Below are positions 5,261 to 10,753 of a stretch of DNA of 29,924 bases, piece after piece. The position numbers and the translations under genes were made by a program. The DNA comes from a virus (lineage: Duplodnaviria > Heunggongvirae > Uroviricota > Caudoviricetes): IMG/VR virus record IMGVR_UViG_2541047891_000002; one strand, written 5' to 3'. The stretch's first letter is position 1. Each line of letters begins with the position of its first letter. Below the pieces are notes generated by a model. The model did no database searches. It saw only the letters and a list, made by a program, of their open reading frames with translations, and was not told where the DNA came from.

Positions 5261-5549
5261 TGCTGACTTGATGGCTGCTACATTAATTTCCAGTGGCATA
5301 CCAGAACAAAAGGTGAATGATTTTCTGAATAATGTTGTGTATCAACGTTATGAGCAGGCCAGAGAAGATTTAATTTCAGAAAAGCGCGCGATAATCGCTG
5401 AATCCTTAAGTTATGCATGGATTATCGAAGAGTTGCGGGGAATCATTGCCGGTCAGGATAAACTGGCGGCAGTTGCCGCCCTTGATGTGCTACAACGGAT
5501 GAGTAAGGATTTATTCCATACCGAGTTTATTTTTAAAGAACTGGGCTAA
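5238..5549 (+). CDS. Hypothetical protein (103 aa), part of an AT-rich insertion
   Basis: ORF with protein-like composition in a region visibly lower in GC than flanks; converges on and overlaps the reverse-strand gene 5511-5915 by 39 bp. Confidence 0.5.
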   Translation: MKIQSITDADLMAATLISSGIPEQKVNDFLNNVVYQRYEQAREDLISEKRAIIAESLSYAWIIEELRGIIAGQDKLAAVAALDVLQRMSKDLFHTEFIFKELG

Positions 5550-5915
5550 TAAACTTTTGCTGATGTCTTTTACAACATCAAATGGGGCATCAGCAAACTC
5601 ATTTTTTATCCGTTCAAGGATGGGTTTCTTATGTAATGCGTTGGCAAAGTCGTGGCCTGTCTGGGTTAGTCTTATCGGTATTGCATTCCAGACAAATCCC
5701 TTAGTGGTTGGTATAAGCCCTATACATTTAGGAGATCCTGTTTCCAGATTTCTGTTACTGATAAGACCATTTTCTGTCAGCAACAATAAATGGAAAATTA
5801 GTTTCTGTTCATCATGTGATGTATTGATGCCAATATCACTAAGGGTGATAAAAGCATCATTTGAATCCAGAAAAACATCCAGAATCCGGGCCAGTTCATC
5901 ATAGTCAATTTTCAT
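5511..5915 (-). CDS. Hypothetical protein (134 aa) on the reverse strand inside the early region; function unknown
   Basis: Reverse-strand ORF with balanced, protein-like composition and AAGGAA 6 nt upstream of its ATG; the overlapping + strand ORF 5557-5904 is Ser-rich and low-complexity like an antisense shadow; start is 30 bp from and divergent to gemA start. Confidence 0.55.
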   Translation of the reverse strand: MKIDYDELARILDVFLDSNDAFITLSDIGINTSHDEQKLIFHLLLLTENGLISNRNLETGSPKCIGLIPTTKGFVWNAIPIRLTQTGHDFANALHKKPILERIKNEFADAPFDVVKDISKSLLAQFFKNKLGME

Positions 5916-5945
5916 ATCTCATTCCTTAATATGAGAGGTGATCAA

Positions 5946-6497
5946 ATGAGTCGCACATCACTGATTAAATTAATCCATGTAGCCCGTCGTAATCTACAAC
6001 TTGACGACGACACCTACCGTGCCTTTCTGATGCAGAACACGGGCAAAATTAGTTGCCGTGAGCTGACCGTCGCGCAACTGGAGCTGGTGCTCGATGCCAT
6101 GAAAGAACGCGGTTTTAAGAAGCAGAATAAACACCCACGCCGTCGCTTTAAGGGGCATGTCACGCCCCGCGAAAAGGTATTAAAAATCTGGCAGCAAATG
6201 GCAGAAGACGGTTTTATTGCCGATGGCAGTGATACAGCACTGGATAAATACGTCGAACGACTGACAGCCAGACGTAATGGCGGACAGGGTGTTTCCACGC
6301 TGGCGTGGTGTCACGGAGAATCGTTACAAATTGTGCTTGAAACCCTGAAACAGTGGCACATCCGCTGTATCCGTGAAGCCTTTTCCCGTTATGGACTCCC
6401 GTTGCCGGTCAGCCCGTCCGGGCGTGAACTGCGTGGCTATGATGCCATGACAGCAGCTTATGCCCGTGCAAGAAAAACACGGAGACTGGCACAATGA
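5946..6497 (+). CDS. gemA: GemA-like early protein
   Basis: Track ORF 5931-6497; start ATG 5946 with GAGGTG upstream; ~183 aa directly upstream of mor with ATGA overlap, as in Mu. Confidence 0.75.
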   Translation: MSRTSLIKLIHVARRNLQLDDDTYRAFLMQNTGKISCRELTVAQLELVLDAMKERGFKKQNKHPRRRFKGHVTPREKVLKIWQQMAEDGFIADGSDTALDKYVERLTARRNGGQGVSTLAWCHGESLQIVLETLKQWHIRCIREAFSRYGLPLPVSPSGRELRGYDAMTAAYARARKTRRLAQ

Positions 6498-6883
6498 CGC
6501 AGGATTTGTTTGGCGACTTTCAGGATGACAGTATCCTGGCTCATCTTGACAATGAATCCGGGGATACGTCACGATTTCCGGCACTGCTGGCGGAACTGAA
6601 CGATGTGCTGCGTCAGGAACTGTCCCGGCTGGGCGTTGAACCTGCGCACTCTCTGGAGATTGTTGTGGCTATCTGTAAACATCTTGGCGGTGGTCAGGTC
6701 TATATTCCTCGTGGGCAGGTGCTGGATTCACTGGTTCGGGATTTACGAATCTGGAATGATTTTAACGGGCGCAATGTTCACGAACTGGCAATTCGTTATG
6801 GTGTGACGTTTAACACTGTCTATAAAGCCATCCGACGAATGCGGCGTATAAAGTATCGTCAGTATCAACCCCCTCTGTTTTAA
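6494..6883 (+). CDS. mor: Mor, activator of the middle promoter
   Basis: 129 aa; C-terminal block YIPRGQVLDSLVRDLRIWNDFNGRNVHELAIRYGVTFNTVYKAIRRMRR matches recalled Mu Mor and is paralogous to C. Confidence 0.88.
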   Translation: MTQDLFGDFQDDSILAHLDNESGDTSRFPALLAELNDVLRQELSRLGVEPAHSLEIVVAICKHLGGGQVYIPRGQVLDSLVRDLRIWNDFNGRNVHELAIRYGVTFNTVYKAIRRMRRIKYRQYQPPLF

Positions 6884-6888
6884 ACAGT

Positions 6889-6913
6889 AAAGCCGGTTAA
6901 TCCGGCTTTTTTT
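6889..6913 (+). terminator. Rho-independent terminator ending the early transcript after mor
   Basis: Stem AGCCGG (6891-6896) / CCGGCT (6902-6907), 5-nt loop, then a run of 7 T; begins 6 bp after the mor stop. Confidence 0.75.
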
Positions 6914-6965
6914 ACGCCCTCAATATTCTGTTGTGACGATAAAACGTTCATTACAGGAGGGCAAC
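6914..6965 (+). promoter_or_regulatory. Candidate middle promoter region (Pm-equivalent, expected to be Mor-dependent)
   Basis: Position only: between the early terminator and the first middle-operon gene; contains TGACGATAAAAC; no element verified. Confidence 0.3.
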
Positions 6966-7526
6966 ATGCCTGAGTTTTCCCCTGCATTCCTTCATTCGCT
7001 GAATTTTGTTATACGGCCTGATGTTGAAGGTGGTTACGTTAATGATCCCACTGACCGTGGCGGCGAAACCAAATACGGCATTTCTGACCGTCGCGACGGC
7101 GTTATTGATGGCAAAACCGATGTTAACGGTGACGGGAAGCCTGATACCCGTATTAAAGATTTAACCCACGAGCAGGCGGCGCAAATCTACTGGCGTGATT
7201 ACTGGCTGGCGGCAAAGTGTAACGAATGGCCTGATGGTGTTTCCTTATTCGTCTTTGATGCTGCCGTTCAGCACGGTGTTAAACGCGCAATTCAAATCCT
7301 CCAGGCGGCAGCAGGTGTTGATGATGATGGCATCGTCGGCAAAAACACCCGCGCAGCCGTTCTGCGTGCCGACACTGACTGGCTGCTGTTGCAGTGTTTC
7401 CTGCGTCGTTCCCGCTATTACGCAGGGATTATCAAATCCAGTGCCTCGCAGGGGAAATATCTGAACGGCTGGTTTAACCGCCTGGATCTGCTCGCCAGCG
7501 TCTGCCGGGAGGTTCTGCATGGGTAA
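6966..7526 (+). CDS. GH108-family muramidase with C-terminal peptidoglycan-binding domain
   Basis: Track ORF 6933-7526; start ATG 6966 with AGGAGG 5 nt upstream; N-terminal EGGYVNDPTDRGGETKYGI motif typical of glycoside hydrolase family 108; C-terminal DGIVGKNTRAAV resembles PG_binding_3. Confidence 0.75.
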   Translation: MPEFSPAFLHSLNFVIRPDVEGGYVNDPTDRGGETKYGISDRRDGVIDGKTDVNGDGKPDTRIKDLTHEQAAQIYWRDYWLAAKCNEWPDGVSLFVFDAAVQHGVKRAIQILQAAAGVDDDGIVGKNTRAAVLRADTDWLLLQCFLRRSRYYAGIIKSSASQGKYLNGWFNRLDLLASVCREVLHG

Positions 7527-7737
7527 AGGGTGGGATGCGTCCTTTCGGTTTGGCAGACGCGAACGTTTACGACAGGAGGTGTTACATCGGGAGGCCGGAG
7601 GTCCACCACCAAAGCCAATGGATTACACAGGGCACGATGGCACCCACGGGAGCTATTACATGAAAGGCTGGCAGTCAGTCGATATGCCAGAAATTATTCA
7701 CCACTGCCAGCGTTACAGGGAAAAGCATCATGTTTAA
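7519..7737 (+). CDS. Hypothetical small basic, His-rich protein (72 aa)
   Basis: ATG 7519 overlaps the stop of the GH108 gene (coupled arrangement). Confidence 0.4.
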   Translation: MGKGWDASFRFGRRERLRQEVLHREAGGPPPKPMDYTGHDGTHGSYYMKGWQSVDMPEIIHHCQRYREKHHV

Positions 7738-8110
7738 GCGTTTCTGTTATTTGTTACCAAATTGTCTGCCGGTCATGTTGCTGGCGCTGATTCTGATTAT
7801 CAGCGTGTTTTATGGTTTGCGGGCGGTGCTGTTCTGGAATGCTGCCGTTTTCAGTGTGGCGCTGTGCTTTACCGGCACTATTTTTGATGATCTGTCCCGG
7901 ACAGGAAAAATCCGACGTTATGCTTCTATTAATGCCATTGATTTTCTTGGTGGCCTCGTCGGGTTAAGTCTTTCGGCTATTGCAACCGGGCTTTTAGAAG
8001 AAGTGCATCAGTTCACGATTTATGCTTTATCTGGCTTCTGTAGCATATGGTTTTGCTTTCGCCTCCATATCTGTCTGCGACGTTCAGTACCGTCTGGCGC
8101 GGAGGCATGA
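7730..8110 (+). CDS. Multi-pass membrane protein (126 aa), holin-like candidate
   Basis: At least three hydrophobic helices (VMLLALILIISVFYGL, AAVFSVALCFTGTIF, FLGGLVGLSLSAIATGLL); start overlaps previous stop. Confidence 0.5.
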   Translation: MFKRFCYLLPNCLPVMLLALILIISVFYGLRAVLFWNAAVFSVALCFTGTIFDDLSRTGKIRRYASINAIDFLGGLVGLSLSAIATGLLEEVHQFTIYALSGFCSIWFCFRLHICLRRSVPSGAEA

Positions 8111-8232
8111 TGTACAGAAGATTCAGTAATGAATGTTCCGGCATGGCTACGTTGCTGATGGTGATGAAGGGTATCACAGTTATTGCACTGCTTGCCGTAG
8201 TCACGGGGATCTGTCTGTTAGTTTTTCGCTGA
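8107..8232 (+). CDS. Small single-pass membrane protein (~41 aa)
   Basis: Track ORF 8047-8232; ATG 8107/8110 next to GGAGG; one hydrophobic helix ITVIALLAVVTGICLLVF. Confidence 0.35.
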   Translation: MMYRRFSNECSGMATLLMVMKGITVIALLAVVTGICLLVFR

Positions 8233-8242
8233 TGGGGGCAAA

Positions 8243-8653
8243 ATGACAAATCAGCAGGATTTATTTGAACATGATCCGGCTGTAAGCCAGTTAATGGATC
8301 ATATCGACAATATACCGGCTCCTGAGCAGGAGGCCCGCTGGCCCCGCGCGCTGGTTGAGCTGGTTGACGTTCTGGAAACAGAACTGAAACGTCAGGGCGT
8401 GGATGATGCACGGAGCATAGCCCGTAAACAGGTGATGTCCTTATCATGGTTCCTGGGGGGACGGCAGTATTACATCCCCCGGGGTGATGCACTTCTGGCA
8501 GCGTTGCGGGATGATCTGATTTACTGCCAGTTTAACGGTCGGAACATAGAGGAGCTGCGGCGTGAACATCGTCTGTCACAACCGCAGATTTACAAGATTA
8601 TTGCCCGGCAGAGAAAACTTCATTCACGGCGACATCAGCCCGATTTATTCTGA
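8243..8653 (+). CDS. C: C, activator of late transcription (Mor/C family)
   Basis: 136 aa; C-terminal block YYIPRGDALLAALRDDLIYCQFNGRNIEELRREHRLSQPQIYKIIARQRK paralogous to Mor; directly upstream of lys as in Mu. Confidence 0.85.
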   Translation: MTNQQDLFEHDPAVSQLMDHIDNIPAPEQEARWPRALVELVDVLETELKRQGVDDARSIARKQVMSLSWFLGGRQYYIPRGDALLAALRDDLIYCQFNGRNIEELRREHRLSQPQIYKIIARQRKLHSRRHQPDLF

Positions 8654-8686
8654 GTAACAGCAATCAATCGGTGCAGGCCGGTTGTG

Positions 8687-8755
8687 TTAATTAATAATAA
8701 CCCCGCCTGCAAATTCCCCTGAGTTACCCTCCTTTTATTACCGAAGGAGGGTTTC
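8687..8755 (+). promoter_or_regulatory. Candidate C-dependent late promoter region for lys
   Basis: 12-mer ATAACCCCGCCT at 8697-8708 is repeated exactly at 15903-15914 upstream of I; both followed within ~10-15 bp by TCCCC; also a near-dyad TTAATTAATAATAA at 8687-8700. Confidence 0.4.
8726..8752 (+). promoter_or_regulatory. Hairpin sequestering the lys ribosome-binding site
   Basis: ACCCTCCTT (8726-8734) pairs with AAGGAGGGT (8744-8752) around a 9-nt loop; the right arm contains the AGGAGG Shine-Dalgarno 5 nt before the lys ATG. Confidence 0.45.
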
Positions 8756-9184
8756 ATGAACGATTTTAAAAAACGTCTCCCCCGCATCATCAGAACACTT
8801 GCCATCGTGGTACTGGCGGCATGTGGTGGCTGGCAGTTGTCCGGCGATGGTGATTCATCGCTGGTTTCTGTTCAGTACCTTCCATACACAGACCAGCACG
8901 GCGAACTGACAGTTTGCCTTAACCATCACGGTCCTGATATTCAGCAACGCCCTTACAGCTATGGTGAATGCATCATGCTGTTGAAAGCAGATTTGAAGCC
9001 TGTTTATGACACGTTAAATACCCATCTGAACAGGCCACTGACAGAGGAACAAAAAAATGCACTGGCGGTGTTTATGTTCAGCGCCGGTTCTGGTGCTGTG
9101 CCCGCTCCCCGTAATAATCAGCTGCTGAATGATGATGTGTTACCGGTGCCGGGATTAATGCCGGGTATGTCGTCAGGGCTGTAA
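8756..9184 (+). CDS. lys: Lysozyme-fold endolysin homologue with SAR-type N-terminus, possibly degenerate
   Basis: 142 aa; N-terminus MNDFKKRLPRIIRTLAIVVLAACGGWQL (two Lys then a weakly hydrophobic Gly/Ala-rich segment); core YLPYTDQHGELTVCLNHHG aligns to the Y.PY.D.....T.C.GH block of SAR lysozymes; see findings for missing Glu. Confidence 0.7.
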   Translation: MNDFKKRLPRIIRTLAIVVLAACGGWQLSGDGDSSLVSVQYLPYTDQHGELTVCLNHHGPDIQQRPYSYGECIMLLKADLKPVYDTLNTHLNRPLTEEQKNALAVFMFSAGSGAVPAPRNNQLLNDDVLPVPGLMPGMSSGL

Positions 9185-9196
9185 ACAGGAGAGCGT

Positions 9197-9496
9197 GTGG
9201 ATATTTATTCAGTGCTGACCTACTCGATAGGCAGTGGCAGCACCATTGGTGGCATTTTGTGGTGGGCGGTGAGGCGTACATTTGCCAGCACGGAACGTGT
9301 GGAGCAAATCGAAAGCCGTTTAACCGCGCTTGAAACGAAGTGCGAAAACATGCCCAGTGCACAGGATTTACATGCTGTCCGGTTACAGACCGCAGAAACC
9401 AATGGTGAAGTGAAAGCGATGAACCGGCACATACAGGTGCTGACCCATCAACTGGAGCTTTTGCTCGAAAAGGCGCTCGGAGAGAACAACAAATGA
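9197..9496 (+). CDS. Membrane-anchored coiled-coil protein (i-spanin-like or releasin-like)
   Basis: GTG start 9197 with CAGGAGAG upstream; N-terminal hydrophobic helix SIGSGSTIGGILWWAV followed by a helical/coiled-coil region (EQIESRLTALETKCE ... HQLELLLEKAL). Confidence 0.5.
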   Translation: MDIYSVLTYSIGSGSTIGGILWWAVRRTFASTERVEQIESRLTALETKCENMPSAQDLHAVRLQTAETNGEVKAMNRHIQVLTHQLELLLEKALGENNK

Positions 9497-10383: not shown

Positions 10384-10578
10384 ATGGCTGTTGAAACCAA
10401 AGAAAAAACGTCTGCGGAAATTGCCCTGAAACTCAAACCCATCGTCGAAGCGGCGCTGGCTGAGGAGGGCAATATTCATATCGTCACAAAAGCCGAATCA
10501 CTGTATCTGTTAATGCAGATTGTGGTTGGCCCGCGTATCGCGGGCCAGATCATCAGAGAGTCACAAATTAATCAGTAA
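10384..10578 (+). CDS. Hypothetical small protein (65 aa)
   Basis: ATG 10384 preceded by AGGAG (10371-10375) at 8-nt spacing; lies inside track ORF 10162-10578, whose upstream part overlaps the D-like gene. Confidence 0.4.
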   Translation: MAVETKEKTSAEIALKLKPIVEAALAEEGNIHIVTKAESLYLLMQIVVGPRIAGQIIRESQINQ

Positions 10579-10753
10579 TCATTGCCTCCAACAACTGATA
10601 AATATGTTTTAACAACTCCCGTTCTGACTTCACATTTTGATCAGAACCGGCAAGACACGCTGGCTGTTTATTCGTATTCATGCCAGCGATAACAAAGTCA
10701 CTTGCTATTTTTGCAATCTCAATTTTTTGGTCAATGGTCAGCTTTTCTTTCAT
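10568..10753 (-). CDS. Hypothetical small protein (61 aa) on the reverse strand between D and E
   Basis: Reverse-strand ORF with AAGAGG upstream of its ATG and a TATAAAT-like element ~35 nt upstream; AT-rich against GC-rich flanks; 3' end overlaps 10384-10578 by 11 bp. Confidence 0.4.
   Translation of the reverse strand: MKEKLTIDQKIEIAKIASDFVIAGMNTNKQPACLAGSDQNVKSERELLKHIYQLLEAMITD

Follow-up and report, generated by a model that had tools for sequence, protein, structure and literature searches.

A Mu-like prophage of Escherichia coli raises the question of which of its genes encodes the enzyme that degrades murein at lysis. The prophage was analyzed as a stretch of 29,924 nucleotides (nt), IMG/VR virus record IMGVR_UViG_2541047891_000002, referred to here as the window. 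One candidate is a glycoside hydrolase family 108 (GH108) gene, which lies between the middle-operon activator gene mor and homologs of the Mu genes gp18, gp19 and gp20. The other, here called lysS, encodes a shortened GH24-like protein and sits downstream of the late activator gene C. The evidence favors the first candidate: with a probability of roughly 0.7, the GH108 protein is the functional, and probably the sole, endolysin of the prophage. An earlier note on this DNA, made from the letters alone, had described the GH108 gene and its neighbors as a holin-endolysin style module outside the classical lysis position, in a phage with two peptidoglycan hydrolases. Positions 6400-8800 of the window are 99.5-99.6% identical to prophages of E. 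coli PEC422, TUM9757 and SE11, in which the same genes are annotated in RefSeq. The locus is arranged as follows, with the open reading frames (ORFs) of GH108 and the coupled downstream genes present where the earlier note had placed them.

5931-6497: gemA.
6494-6883, plus strand: mor, middle operon activator, 129 amino acids (aa); Pfam Mor match at 3.9e-33; 93-100% identical to Mu-type Mor in relatives.
6884-6935, plus strand: region of the middle promoter Pm, with dyad, T-run and -10 region; from alignment with Mu, phage vB_YpM_5 and contig L007, the Mu record and folding.
6966-7526, plus strand: predicted GH108 N-acetylmuramidase with PG_binding_3 domain, 186 aa; Pfam, PHROG and PDB matches; RefSeq "glycoside hydrolase family 108 protein".
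7519-7737, plus strand: homolog of Mu gp18 (PF26867 Phage_Mu_gp18), 72 aa; 85% identical to Mu gp18.
7730-8110, plus strand: homolog of Mu gp19, 126 aa, multi-pass inner-membrane protein; 37% identity to Mu gp19; PHROG 4975 at 3e-56.
8107 (or 8110)-8232, plus strand: homolog of Mu gp20, 40-41 aa, single-pass membrane protein; 38% identity to Mu gp20; transmembrane (TM) segment at 22-40.
8243-8653, plus strand: C, late transcription activator, 136 aa; Pfam Mor family match at 2.1e-32; 72.5% DNA identity over the Mu gp20-C segment.
8756-9184, plus strand: lysS, shortened GH24-like protein, 142 aa; partial Pfam Phage_lysozyme match; slot of Mu lys.
9197-9496, plus strand: DUF2730 protein, homolog of the Mu gp25 releasin; RefSeq annotation and gene order.

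Downstream of the DUF2730 gene follow gp26-like and gp27-like genes and then the terminase genes onward.

Evidence for the nature of the GH108 protein came from profile and structure-database searches. Pfam gave a match to Glyco_hydro_108 (PF05838; E 3.1e-24, 85.8 bits against a cutoff of 21.2) over residues 20-104 and one to PG_binding_3 (PF09374; E 6.9e-14, 52.2 bits against a cutoff of 24.6) over residues 107-173, corresponding to about 7023-7277 and about 7284-7484 in the DNA, and the product matches PHROG 315, "endolysin", at 4e-51. The earlier note had picked out a GH108 signature and suggested searches for both domains; both are above the gathering scores and place the protein in the GH108/PG_binding_3 muramidase family. 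The signature motif, EGGYVNDPTDRGGETKYGI, begins at nt 7026 and aligns with the same motif in PDB 2IS5/2IKB (E 8e-20) and 7DNP. The catalytic EGGY motif (E21-G-G-Y) and the DxGGxTxxGI that follows it align residue for residue with these structures, and EGGY is kept in the enterobacterial relatives. The PDB sequence search also matched 2NR7 and the TtsA relatives 6V3Z/6V40. No signal or TM segment was found in the product, in which no 19-residue window reaches a Kyte-Doolittle (KD) hydropathy of 1.5, and a soluble endolysin without an export signal is what a canonical lysis cassette contains. Judged by its sequence, the 6966-7526 product is a GH108 N-acetylmuramidase, predicted to be cytoplasmic and signal-less. 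An AGGAGG Shine-Dalgarno (SD) sequence sits 7 nt before ATG 6966, and because of this strong SD that codon is preferred as the start over GTG 6933. Among four lineages the gene has a dN/dS (omega) of 0.04-0.09, indicating strong purifying selection.

The protein also carries an Asp-rich insert, RRDGVIDGKTDVNGDGKPD, at 7089-7145 (residues 42-60), with a DxNxDG-like motif resembling a calcium loop. The insert (14 aa) is kept in the GH108 proteins of enterobacterial Mu-like phages and absent from the Pseudoalteromonas and Shewanella homologs. It is also lacking in the structures of Neisseria meningitidis NMB1012 (2IKB/2IS5), 7DNP, 2NR7 ("secretion activator protein") and TtsA (6V3Z/6V40), all of which show homology to the window protein in each of the two domains (E 8e-20 to 3e-5). 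The tblastn matches of the window GH108 include N4-like phages. Coliphage N4 gp61, studied by Stojkovic and Rothman-Denes in 2007, is said to be the founding GH108 member and reportedly requires the Glu of its EGGY motif for activity. It shares the catalytic family and EGGY with the window protein, but identity is below 35%, the genome context is unrelated and the lysis partners differ. A defence-system reading of the locus was dropped, as PADLOC gave no match for the five proteins examined.

The position of the gene suggests when it would be expressed. The dyad AAAGCCGGTTAATCCGGCTTT at 6889-6909 and the T-run after it are, by identity with Mu, both the early terminator and the Mor-binding element; they are followed by a conserved -10 region, CCTCAATAT(T/C)CTGT. 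From the mor stop codon to the -10 region the sequence is near-invariant in comparison with Mu, vB_YpM_5 and contig L007 (alignment positions 20-57 and 59-67 are invariant), and the curated Mu record labels the same stretch both as terminator and as "middle promoter, activated by Mor". The hairpin at 6889-6913 has a folding energy of -12.2 kcal/mol (z -4.4) and is identical to the Mu terminator/Mor-site element. It was not listed by a consensus terminator scan, probably because the maximal stem absorbs part of the T-run, and it is accepted as a terminator on the grounds of its folding and its identity with the annotated Mu terminator. With the Mor-binding dyad and Pm core upstream, and with gp18, gp19, gp20 and C present in order, the locus has the content of the Mu middle operon. 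The placement of GH108 as first gene of a predicted Pm transcript is therefore well supported by homology, in agreement with the earlier note, which had put it first behind the early terminator in a Mor-dependent operon. Comparison of the region between C and lysS with Mu Plys gave a poor alignment, and no C-dependent promoter is claimed before lysS.

Start and stop codons overlap at ATGGGTAA (GH108/gp18), at ATGTTTAA (gp18/gp19) and at ATGATG with TGA (gp19/gp20). These overlaps, read directly from the sequence, bear out the translational coupling proposed for GH108, the His-rich protein and the two membrane proteins encoded before C. The coupling does not extend to C, which starts 10 nt past gp20 and merely adjoins it. 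By promoter identity with Mu, GH108 would be transcribed from Pm with gp18, gp19, gp20 and C as a translationally coupled polycistron, and the signal-less enzyme would accumulate harmlessly in the cytoplasm from middle times. Access to the murein would come only with a breach of the inner membrane, and the enzyme would then degrade the murein at lysis. Candidates for getting the enzyme across the membrane are the gp19 and gp20 homologs, the DUF2730 protein and the membrane-anchored lysS.

Additional evidence for an endolysin role came from the distribution of the gene. IMG/VR was scanned with the GH108 protein and with gp18, and the loci were classified by tblastn. Among 77 GH108-anchored viral loci, gp18 lies directly downstream in 75 (within 80 nt in 74, at about 90 nt in one), and the other two are cut by the contig edge before gp18. 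Full-length GH108 is present in 43 of 57 gp18-anchored loci with enough upstream DNA, and 33 of these 43 are without any GH24 lysozyme; 13 of the 57 have no GH108 and an intact Mu-type lys, and one (L128) has only a partial GH108 match. The common architecture is gemA-mor-GH108-gp18, a protein with four TM segments (4TM), a protein of ~200 aa, a TraR/DksA zinc finger, DUF2730, gp26 and gp27; it includes only one Mor-family gene, and C is absent. The order mor-GH108-gp18-4TM-holin-like-TraR-DUF2730, without C or a GH24 lysozyme, is found in more than 100 Mu-like prophage loci. The ~200-aa protein (roughly 150-200 aa) is a weak match to PF11351 GTA_holin_3TM and is encoded two or three genes downstream of GH108 in most relatives; its counterpart in phage HS6 matches PF11351 at 5e-11 and is annotated as a holin. 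The architecture occurs in E. coli enterotoxigenic (ETEC) strains, Klebsiella, Raoultella, Pluralibacter, Kluyvera, Trabulsiella, Serratia and Brenneria, and also in Pseudoalteromonas phage HS6 and Shewanella phage MuM16-2, where gp18 is 32-38% identical. A genome scan for a single gp18-alignment pattern gave 17 loci, which serve for host names and not for frequencies. In Vibrio phage martha the GH108 slot is taken by another enzyme.

Given these synteny counts, mor-GH108-gp18 is by parsimony a widespread, ancestral endolysin slot, and the Mu arrangement C-lys-spanins would be a derived, special case. The GH108 gene is therefore not outside the classical lysis position, as had been thought, since Mu-like prophages commonly carry their endolysin gene at this point, between mor and gp18. 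The description as a holin-endolysin style module holds as a statement of ancestry, given the PF11351 holin-type gene downstream in relatives; in the window that gene is absent. Chamblee et al. (mBio 2022, PMC9239132) reported that DUF2730 proteins accompany cytoplasmic endolysins in many Mu-like phages, and their Table S1 lists GH108+PG_binding_3 proteins as endolysins paired with DUF2730 in Mu-like Vibrio phages. The GH108 endolysins of Mu-like phages (Vibrio myophages, HS6 gp39, MuM16-2 p20) share with the window protein the same two domains, the absence of a signal, and the slot after Mor, with a gp18 homolog directly following and DUF2730 a few genes further on. In those phages the segment from gp18 to DUF2730 encodes a TM protein, holin-type or large, together with a TraR zinc finger, and a second Mor-family activator is lacking. 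The window instead has gp19-gp20-C-lysS in that segment, which formally makes GH108 a middle gene, located before that of the late activator.

If GH108 is the endolysin, the status of the second candidate has to be explained. The lysS product is 38% identical to Mu gp22, with 142 aa against 171; the C-terminal region cannot be aligned, the C-terminal third being absent, and Pfam Phage_lysozyme matches only at model positions 7-93 of 125. The curated Mu record gives the catalytic residues of gp22 as E37/D46/T52, and an E37A mutant of gp22 is inactive (PMC9239132). At the position of E37 in Mu gp22 and E35 in phage 21 R, lysS has Val; alignment with the crystal-structure sequences of phage 21 R (3HDE) and DLP12 RrrD (4ZPU) sets GLEGVSY against SLVSVQY, without a Glu. 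A whole-database search returned five lysS-type proteins (138-142 aa, 64-99% identity), in none of which the Glu is present; the Asp is lost in one and the Thr in one. Neither the E-D-T triad nor the complete lysozyme fold of a GH24 signal-anchor-release (SAR) endolysin is thus found in lysS. It is very unlikely from these alignments to be a muramidase, and GH108 is probably the only credible muralytic enzyme in the window. The claim of two unrelated peptidoglycan hydrolases is accordingly right at the level of Pfam families, one GH108 and one GH24-like, and wrong in that the second lacks the catalytic Glu and the C-terminal third. "Phage_lysozyme" annotations in such prophages may mark non-enzymes.

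Pairwise dN/dS for lysS is 0.15-0.21, compared with 0.04-0.09 for GH108, 0.04-0.11 for gp25 and 0.01-0.04 for gp27; because the value is clearly below 1, lysS is no neutral pseudogene, and it looks like a dead lysozyme kept for another function. The contexts of lysS comprise the window, the PEC422 prophage with its IMG/VR counterparts, and one Salmonella, two Logan and three further E. coli contigs. GH108 lies upstream in all nine independent contexts with upstream DNA, and lysS without GH108 was found at no locus. The gene is always directly followed by the DUF2730 gene, with gp23, gp23.1 and gp24 absent. Of the ORFs in the window, lysS alone resembles a lipoprotein gene: its product has a lipobox, LAAC (Cys23, Gly at +2), and a Pro-rich tail, and a lipobox-like LA[AV]C motif is kept in all five family members.

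The lost catalytic Glu also bears on the possibility that the gp19 and gp20 homologs act with GH108 as a self-contained holin(/antiholin)-endolysin module, which would give the phage a second lysis system beside an active classical Lys. Such a module would supply the membrane lesion that a signal-less enzyme needs, and the two homologs are small membrane proteins translationally coupled to GH108. Checks of the membrane topology predicted by the earlier note identified a multi-pass protein at 7730-8110 (clear hydrophobic segments at 12-30, 33-51 and 67-88 and a weaker fourth) and a single-pass protein at 8107-8232. Samanta et al. reportedly proposed Mu gp19/gp20 as a holin-antiholin pair, and relatives with a GH108 cassette have a 4TM protein where gp19 would stand. 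The functional data point the other way. Chamblee et al. (PMC9239132) cloned Mu gp19 and gp20 singly and together and found that cells remained viable after addition of dinitrophenol (DNP), a treatment that was lethal with the control holins lambda S105 and phage 21 S68; they concluded that Mu has no holin, gp19/gp20 being neither holins nor needed for lysis. Together with a classical Lys that lacks its Glu, these data make a second, self-contained system unlikely.

The gp19 homolog is 37% identical to Mu gp19 over its full length, for which the curated Mu record predicts four TM domains (N-in, C-in). The gp20 homolog (38% identity) starts at 8107, or at 8110 by analogy with Mu. The membrane proteins encoded after GH108 in the window are homologs of proteins that Mu carries without any GH108 and that were non-lethal in the Mu DNP assay. 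Across the fetched loci gp19 occurs independently of GH108, in all four combinations: loci with GH108 and without gp19 include the plaque-forming Yersinia phages vB_YpM_5/6 and a Salmonella diarizonae prophage, and Mu has gp19 without GH108. This independence and the Mu DNP results argue that gp19/gp20 are no dedicated GH108 partner set in the Mu lineage. Comparison of Mu and window gp19 with the 4TM protein of GH108-only cassettes gave nothing by phmmer and a probability of 55% (E 1e-4) by hhalign; the 4TM protein is a positional analog and, on this alignment, possibly an ortholog of gp19. As for the start of the gp19 homolog, RefSeq and the annotation pipeline PGAP place it at a site equivalent to 7775; both the Mu gp19 alignment and the overlap with the gp18 stop codon at ATGTTTAA favor 7730.

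The small His-rich basic protein noted after GH108 is the gp18 homolog (72 aa, 7 His, net charge +3, soluble), 85% identical to Mu gp18. It gave no Pfam match in the local copy and no PDB sequence match even at E 10; its AlphaFold2 (AF2) model is a three-helix bundle (mean confidence, pLDDT, 85.7) for which Foldseek found nothing below E 1 in the PDB. The family is very narrow, with 14 clusters at E<=1e-3 among 1.84 billion representatives, and has a near-invariant core, MGKGW...GRRDRL..EV...DGTH.S.Y..GW.SV, and conserved His/Cys positions. The gene always comes next after the endolysin gene, even where the enzyme is not GH108, as in phage martha. PHROG 2121 (284 positions) is matched by both gp18 and the 200-aa holin-like protein. 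A gp18-holin fusion was considered and dropped, the two long matches of an exhaustive search being a frameshift fusion with gp19 and a repeat artefact.

Several points weigh against GH108 as the working endolysin of this prophage. No holin was recognized in the window, where a PF11351-type holin is absent, and gp19/gp20 of Mu behave as non-holins. No spanin was found within the 29.9 kb either, lysS being itself the only ORF with a lipobox, so one component of a canonical cassette is missing and the prophage is possibly lysis-defective. By sequence identity GH108 lies behind a middle promoter and upstream of C rather than behind a late promoter, an unusual arrangement for lysis genes. Lysis by Mu-type phages proceeds well without GH108, so that it is dispensable in that background. 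Purifying selection on lysS means that this protein does something, and non-canonical catalysis by it stays a formal possibility.

Searches for the missing parts covered several candidates. In tblastn, Mu gp23 and gp23.1 (the spanins) and gp24 had no match in the window, and no homolog of the TraR protein or of the 200-aa holin-like protein of relatives is present there. The idea that Mu gp24 is a remnant of the TraR zinc-finger gene of relatives found no support from BLASTP or Pfam. GH108-only relatives have no obvious spanin between the holin and DUF2730 genes either. The N-terminus of the window DUF2730 protein is rich in Gly, Ser and Thr, and its best 17-residue KD is 1.05, compared with 1.95 for Mu gp25 and 2.03 for the GH108-only lineage.

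The missing spanins, the lack of a recognizable holin and the dead GH24 protein could mean that the prophage is a lysis-defective relic, in which GH108 hitch-hikes or benefits the host in a non-lytic way, for instance by opening the murein locally so that proteins are released, in the manner of TtsA and the type 10 secretion system (T10SS), or by remodelling the wall. GH108+PG_binding_3 is indeed the architecture of TtsA-type secretion muramidases (6V3Z/6V40 and NF040573 matches; PMC13284979), and Salmonella TtsA acts in non-lytic toxin secretion under PhoP control (PMC13284979). Against an equivalent function, the score with the NCBIfam model for TtsA-type holin-associated muramidases (NF040573, T10SS) is 69.5 bits, compared with a cutoff of 240, and the protein was rejected as a TtsA equivalog. 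GH108 occupies the conserved lysis slot of bona fide phages, and the terminase, portal, head and tail genes of the window are intact ORFs. The architecture is retained in four lineages (dS 0.5-1.5), with GH108, gp25, gp27 and others under strong purifying selection, unlike a decaying relic. A relic with a non-lytic GH108 is, on balance, quite improbable.

Comparison with the closest phages bears on how the GH108 gene came to stand beside a Mu-type C. Mu shares with the window a near-identical Pm/Mor site, the order gp18-gp19-gp20-C and the overlapping start and stop codons. Alignment of Mu with the near-identical L007 contig shows a clean indel, 28 nt in Mu against 586 nt (leader and GH108) in L007, with flanks 91% and 96% identical. 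After C, Mu has the active SAR endolysin gp22, the spanins gp23/23.1 and gp24; the window has a Glu-less, shortened relative and no spanins. The plaque-forming Muvirus phages vB_YpM_5 and vB_YpM_6 carry a GH108 98% identical to that of the window; as in the window, its gene follows Pm and is coupled to gp18. Gene gp19 is missing from both phages, and gp22 (of the Mu type), the spanins, gp24 and gp25 are all intact, so that two muralytic enzymes are truly present. The records of both phages label GH108 only "hypothetical protein"; in vB_YpM_5 (MT374853), a natural two-endolysin Mu, the gene lies at 6567-7127.

A discrete 586-nt indel within Mu sensu stricto, and a close GH108 copy in only two sequenced Muvirus phages of the phage collection, would also be expected if GH108 were a recently acquired moron behind Pm rather than an ancestral gene lost by Mu. 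Yet in every more distant Mu-like lineage examined GH108 stands directly before gp18, the Alteromonadales phages with gp18 at 32-38% among them, and locus by locus its identities (65-75%) run parallel to those of gp18 and mor. A recent acquisition is very improbable on this evidence, with the reservation that re-acquisition by recombination with a Mu-like relative is possible and would look the same as ancestral retention.

In the reading of GH108 as an ancestral endolysin, the Mu lineage would have replaced the holin-type segment by gp20-C-lys(SAR GH24)-spanins. GH108 would afterwards have been deleted (Mu, D108, SfMu) or both enzymes retained (vB_YpM_5/6), and in the lineage of the window the GH24 gene would have decayed to a non-catalytic, shortened, lipoprotein-like protein while the spanins were lost. 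These comparisons lead to the new suggestion that gp18 of Mu, probably together with gp19, is left over from a former GH108 lysis cassette, which would give these Mu orphan genes an evolutionary explanation. A more far-reaching proposal combines the relic status of the non-essential middle genes gp18/gp19 (possibly gp20) of Mu, as remains of an ancestral GH108-holin cassette, with the view of the window lineage as a living intermediate that lyses by means of a cytoplasmic GH108 expressed from the middle promoter, without canonical holin or spanins, using the DUF2730 "releasin" or lysS as the breaching or timing device. As a whole this proposal is tentative and on the doubtful side. If true, it would amount to a new export route for a soluble endolysin and to an endolysin turned non-enzymatic lysis factor.

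Much of the locus is already known: GH108 endolysins in Mu-like phages, the Mu middle operon and DUF2730 have been described, and the gene is named in RefSeq. The hybrid architecture was not found in the literature, full-text matches pairing "Mu-like" with "GH108" being Phage WO papers only. What appears to be new is the combination of a Mu-type Mor/C circuit with the ancestral GH108-gp18 pair behind Pm and with a Glu-less, lipobox-bearing lysS under selection. The loci provide natural backgrounds (GH108 only, both enzymes, GH24 only) for the question of DUF2730 and cytoplasmic endolysins raised by Chamblee et al., and are useful to phage-lysis specialists; no new principle is involved unless holin-less, spanin-less export of a cytoplasmic endolysin is real.

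Two further differences from Mu lie outside the middle operon. Small convergent ORFs at 10384-10578 (plus strand) and 10568-10753 (minus strand) match PHROG 21398 and 25148, whose annotations give no function, and occupy a gap of ~440 nt that separates the small terminase gene (gp27-like) from the large one. In Mu the two terminase genes are neighbors, and the 10384-10753 insert is a possible moron. Just upstream of gemA, a DUF2513 / PHROG 585 gene at 5511-5915 (minus strand) occupies the position of the reverse-oriented gp15 of Mu.

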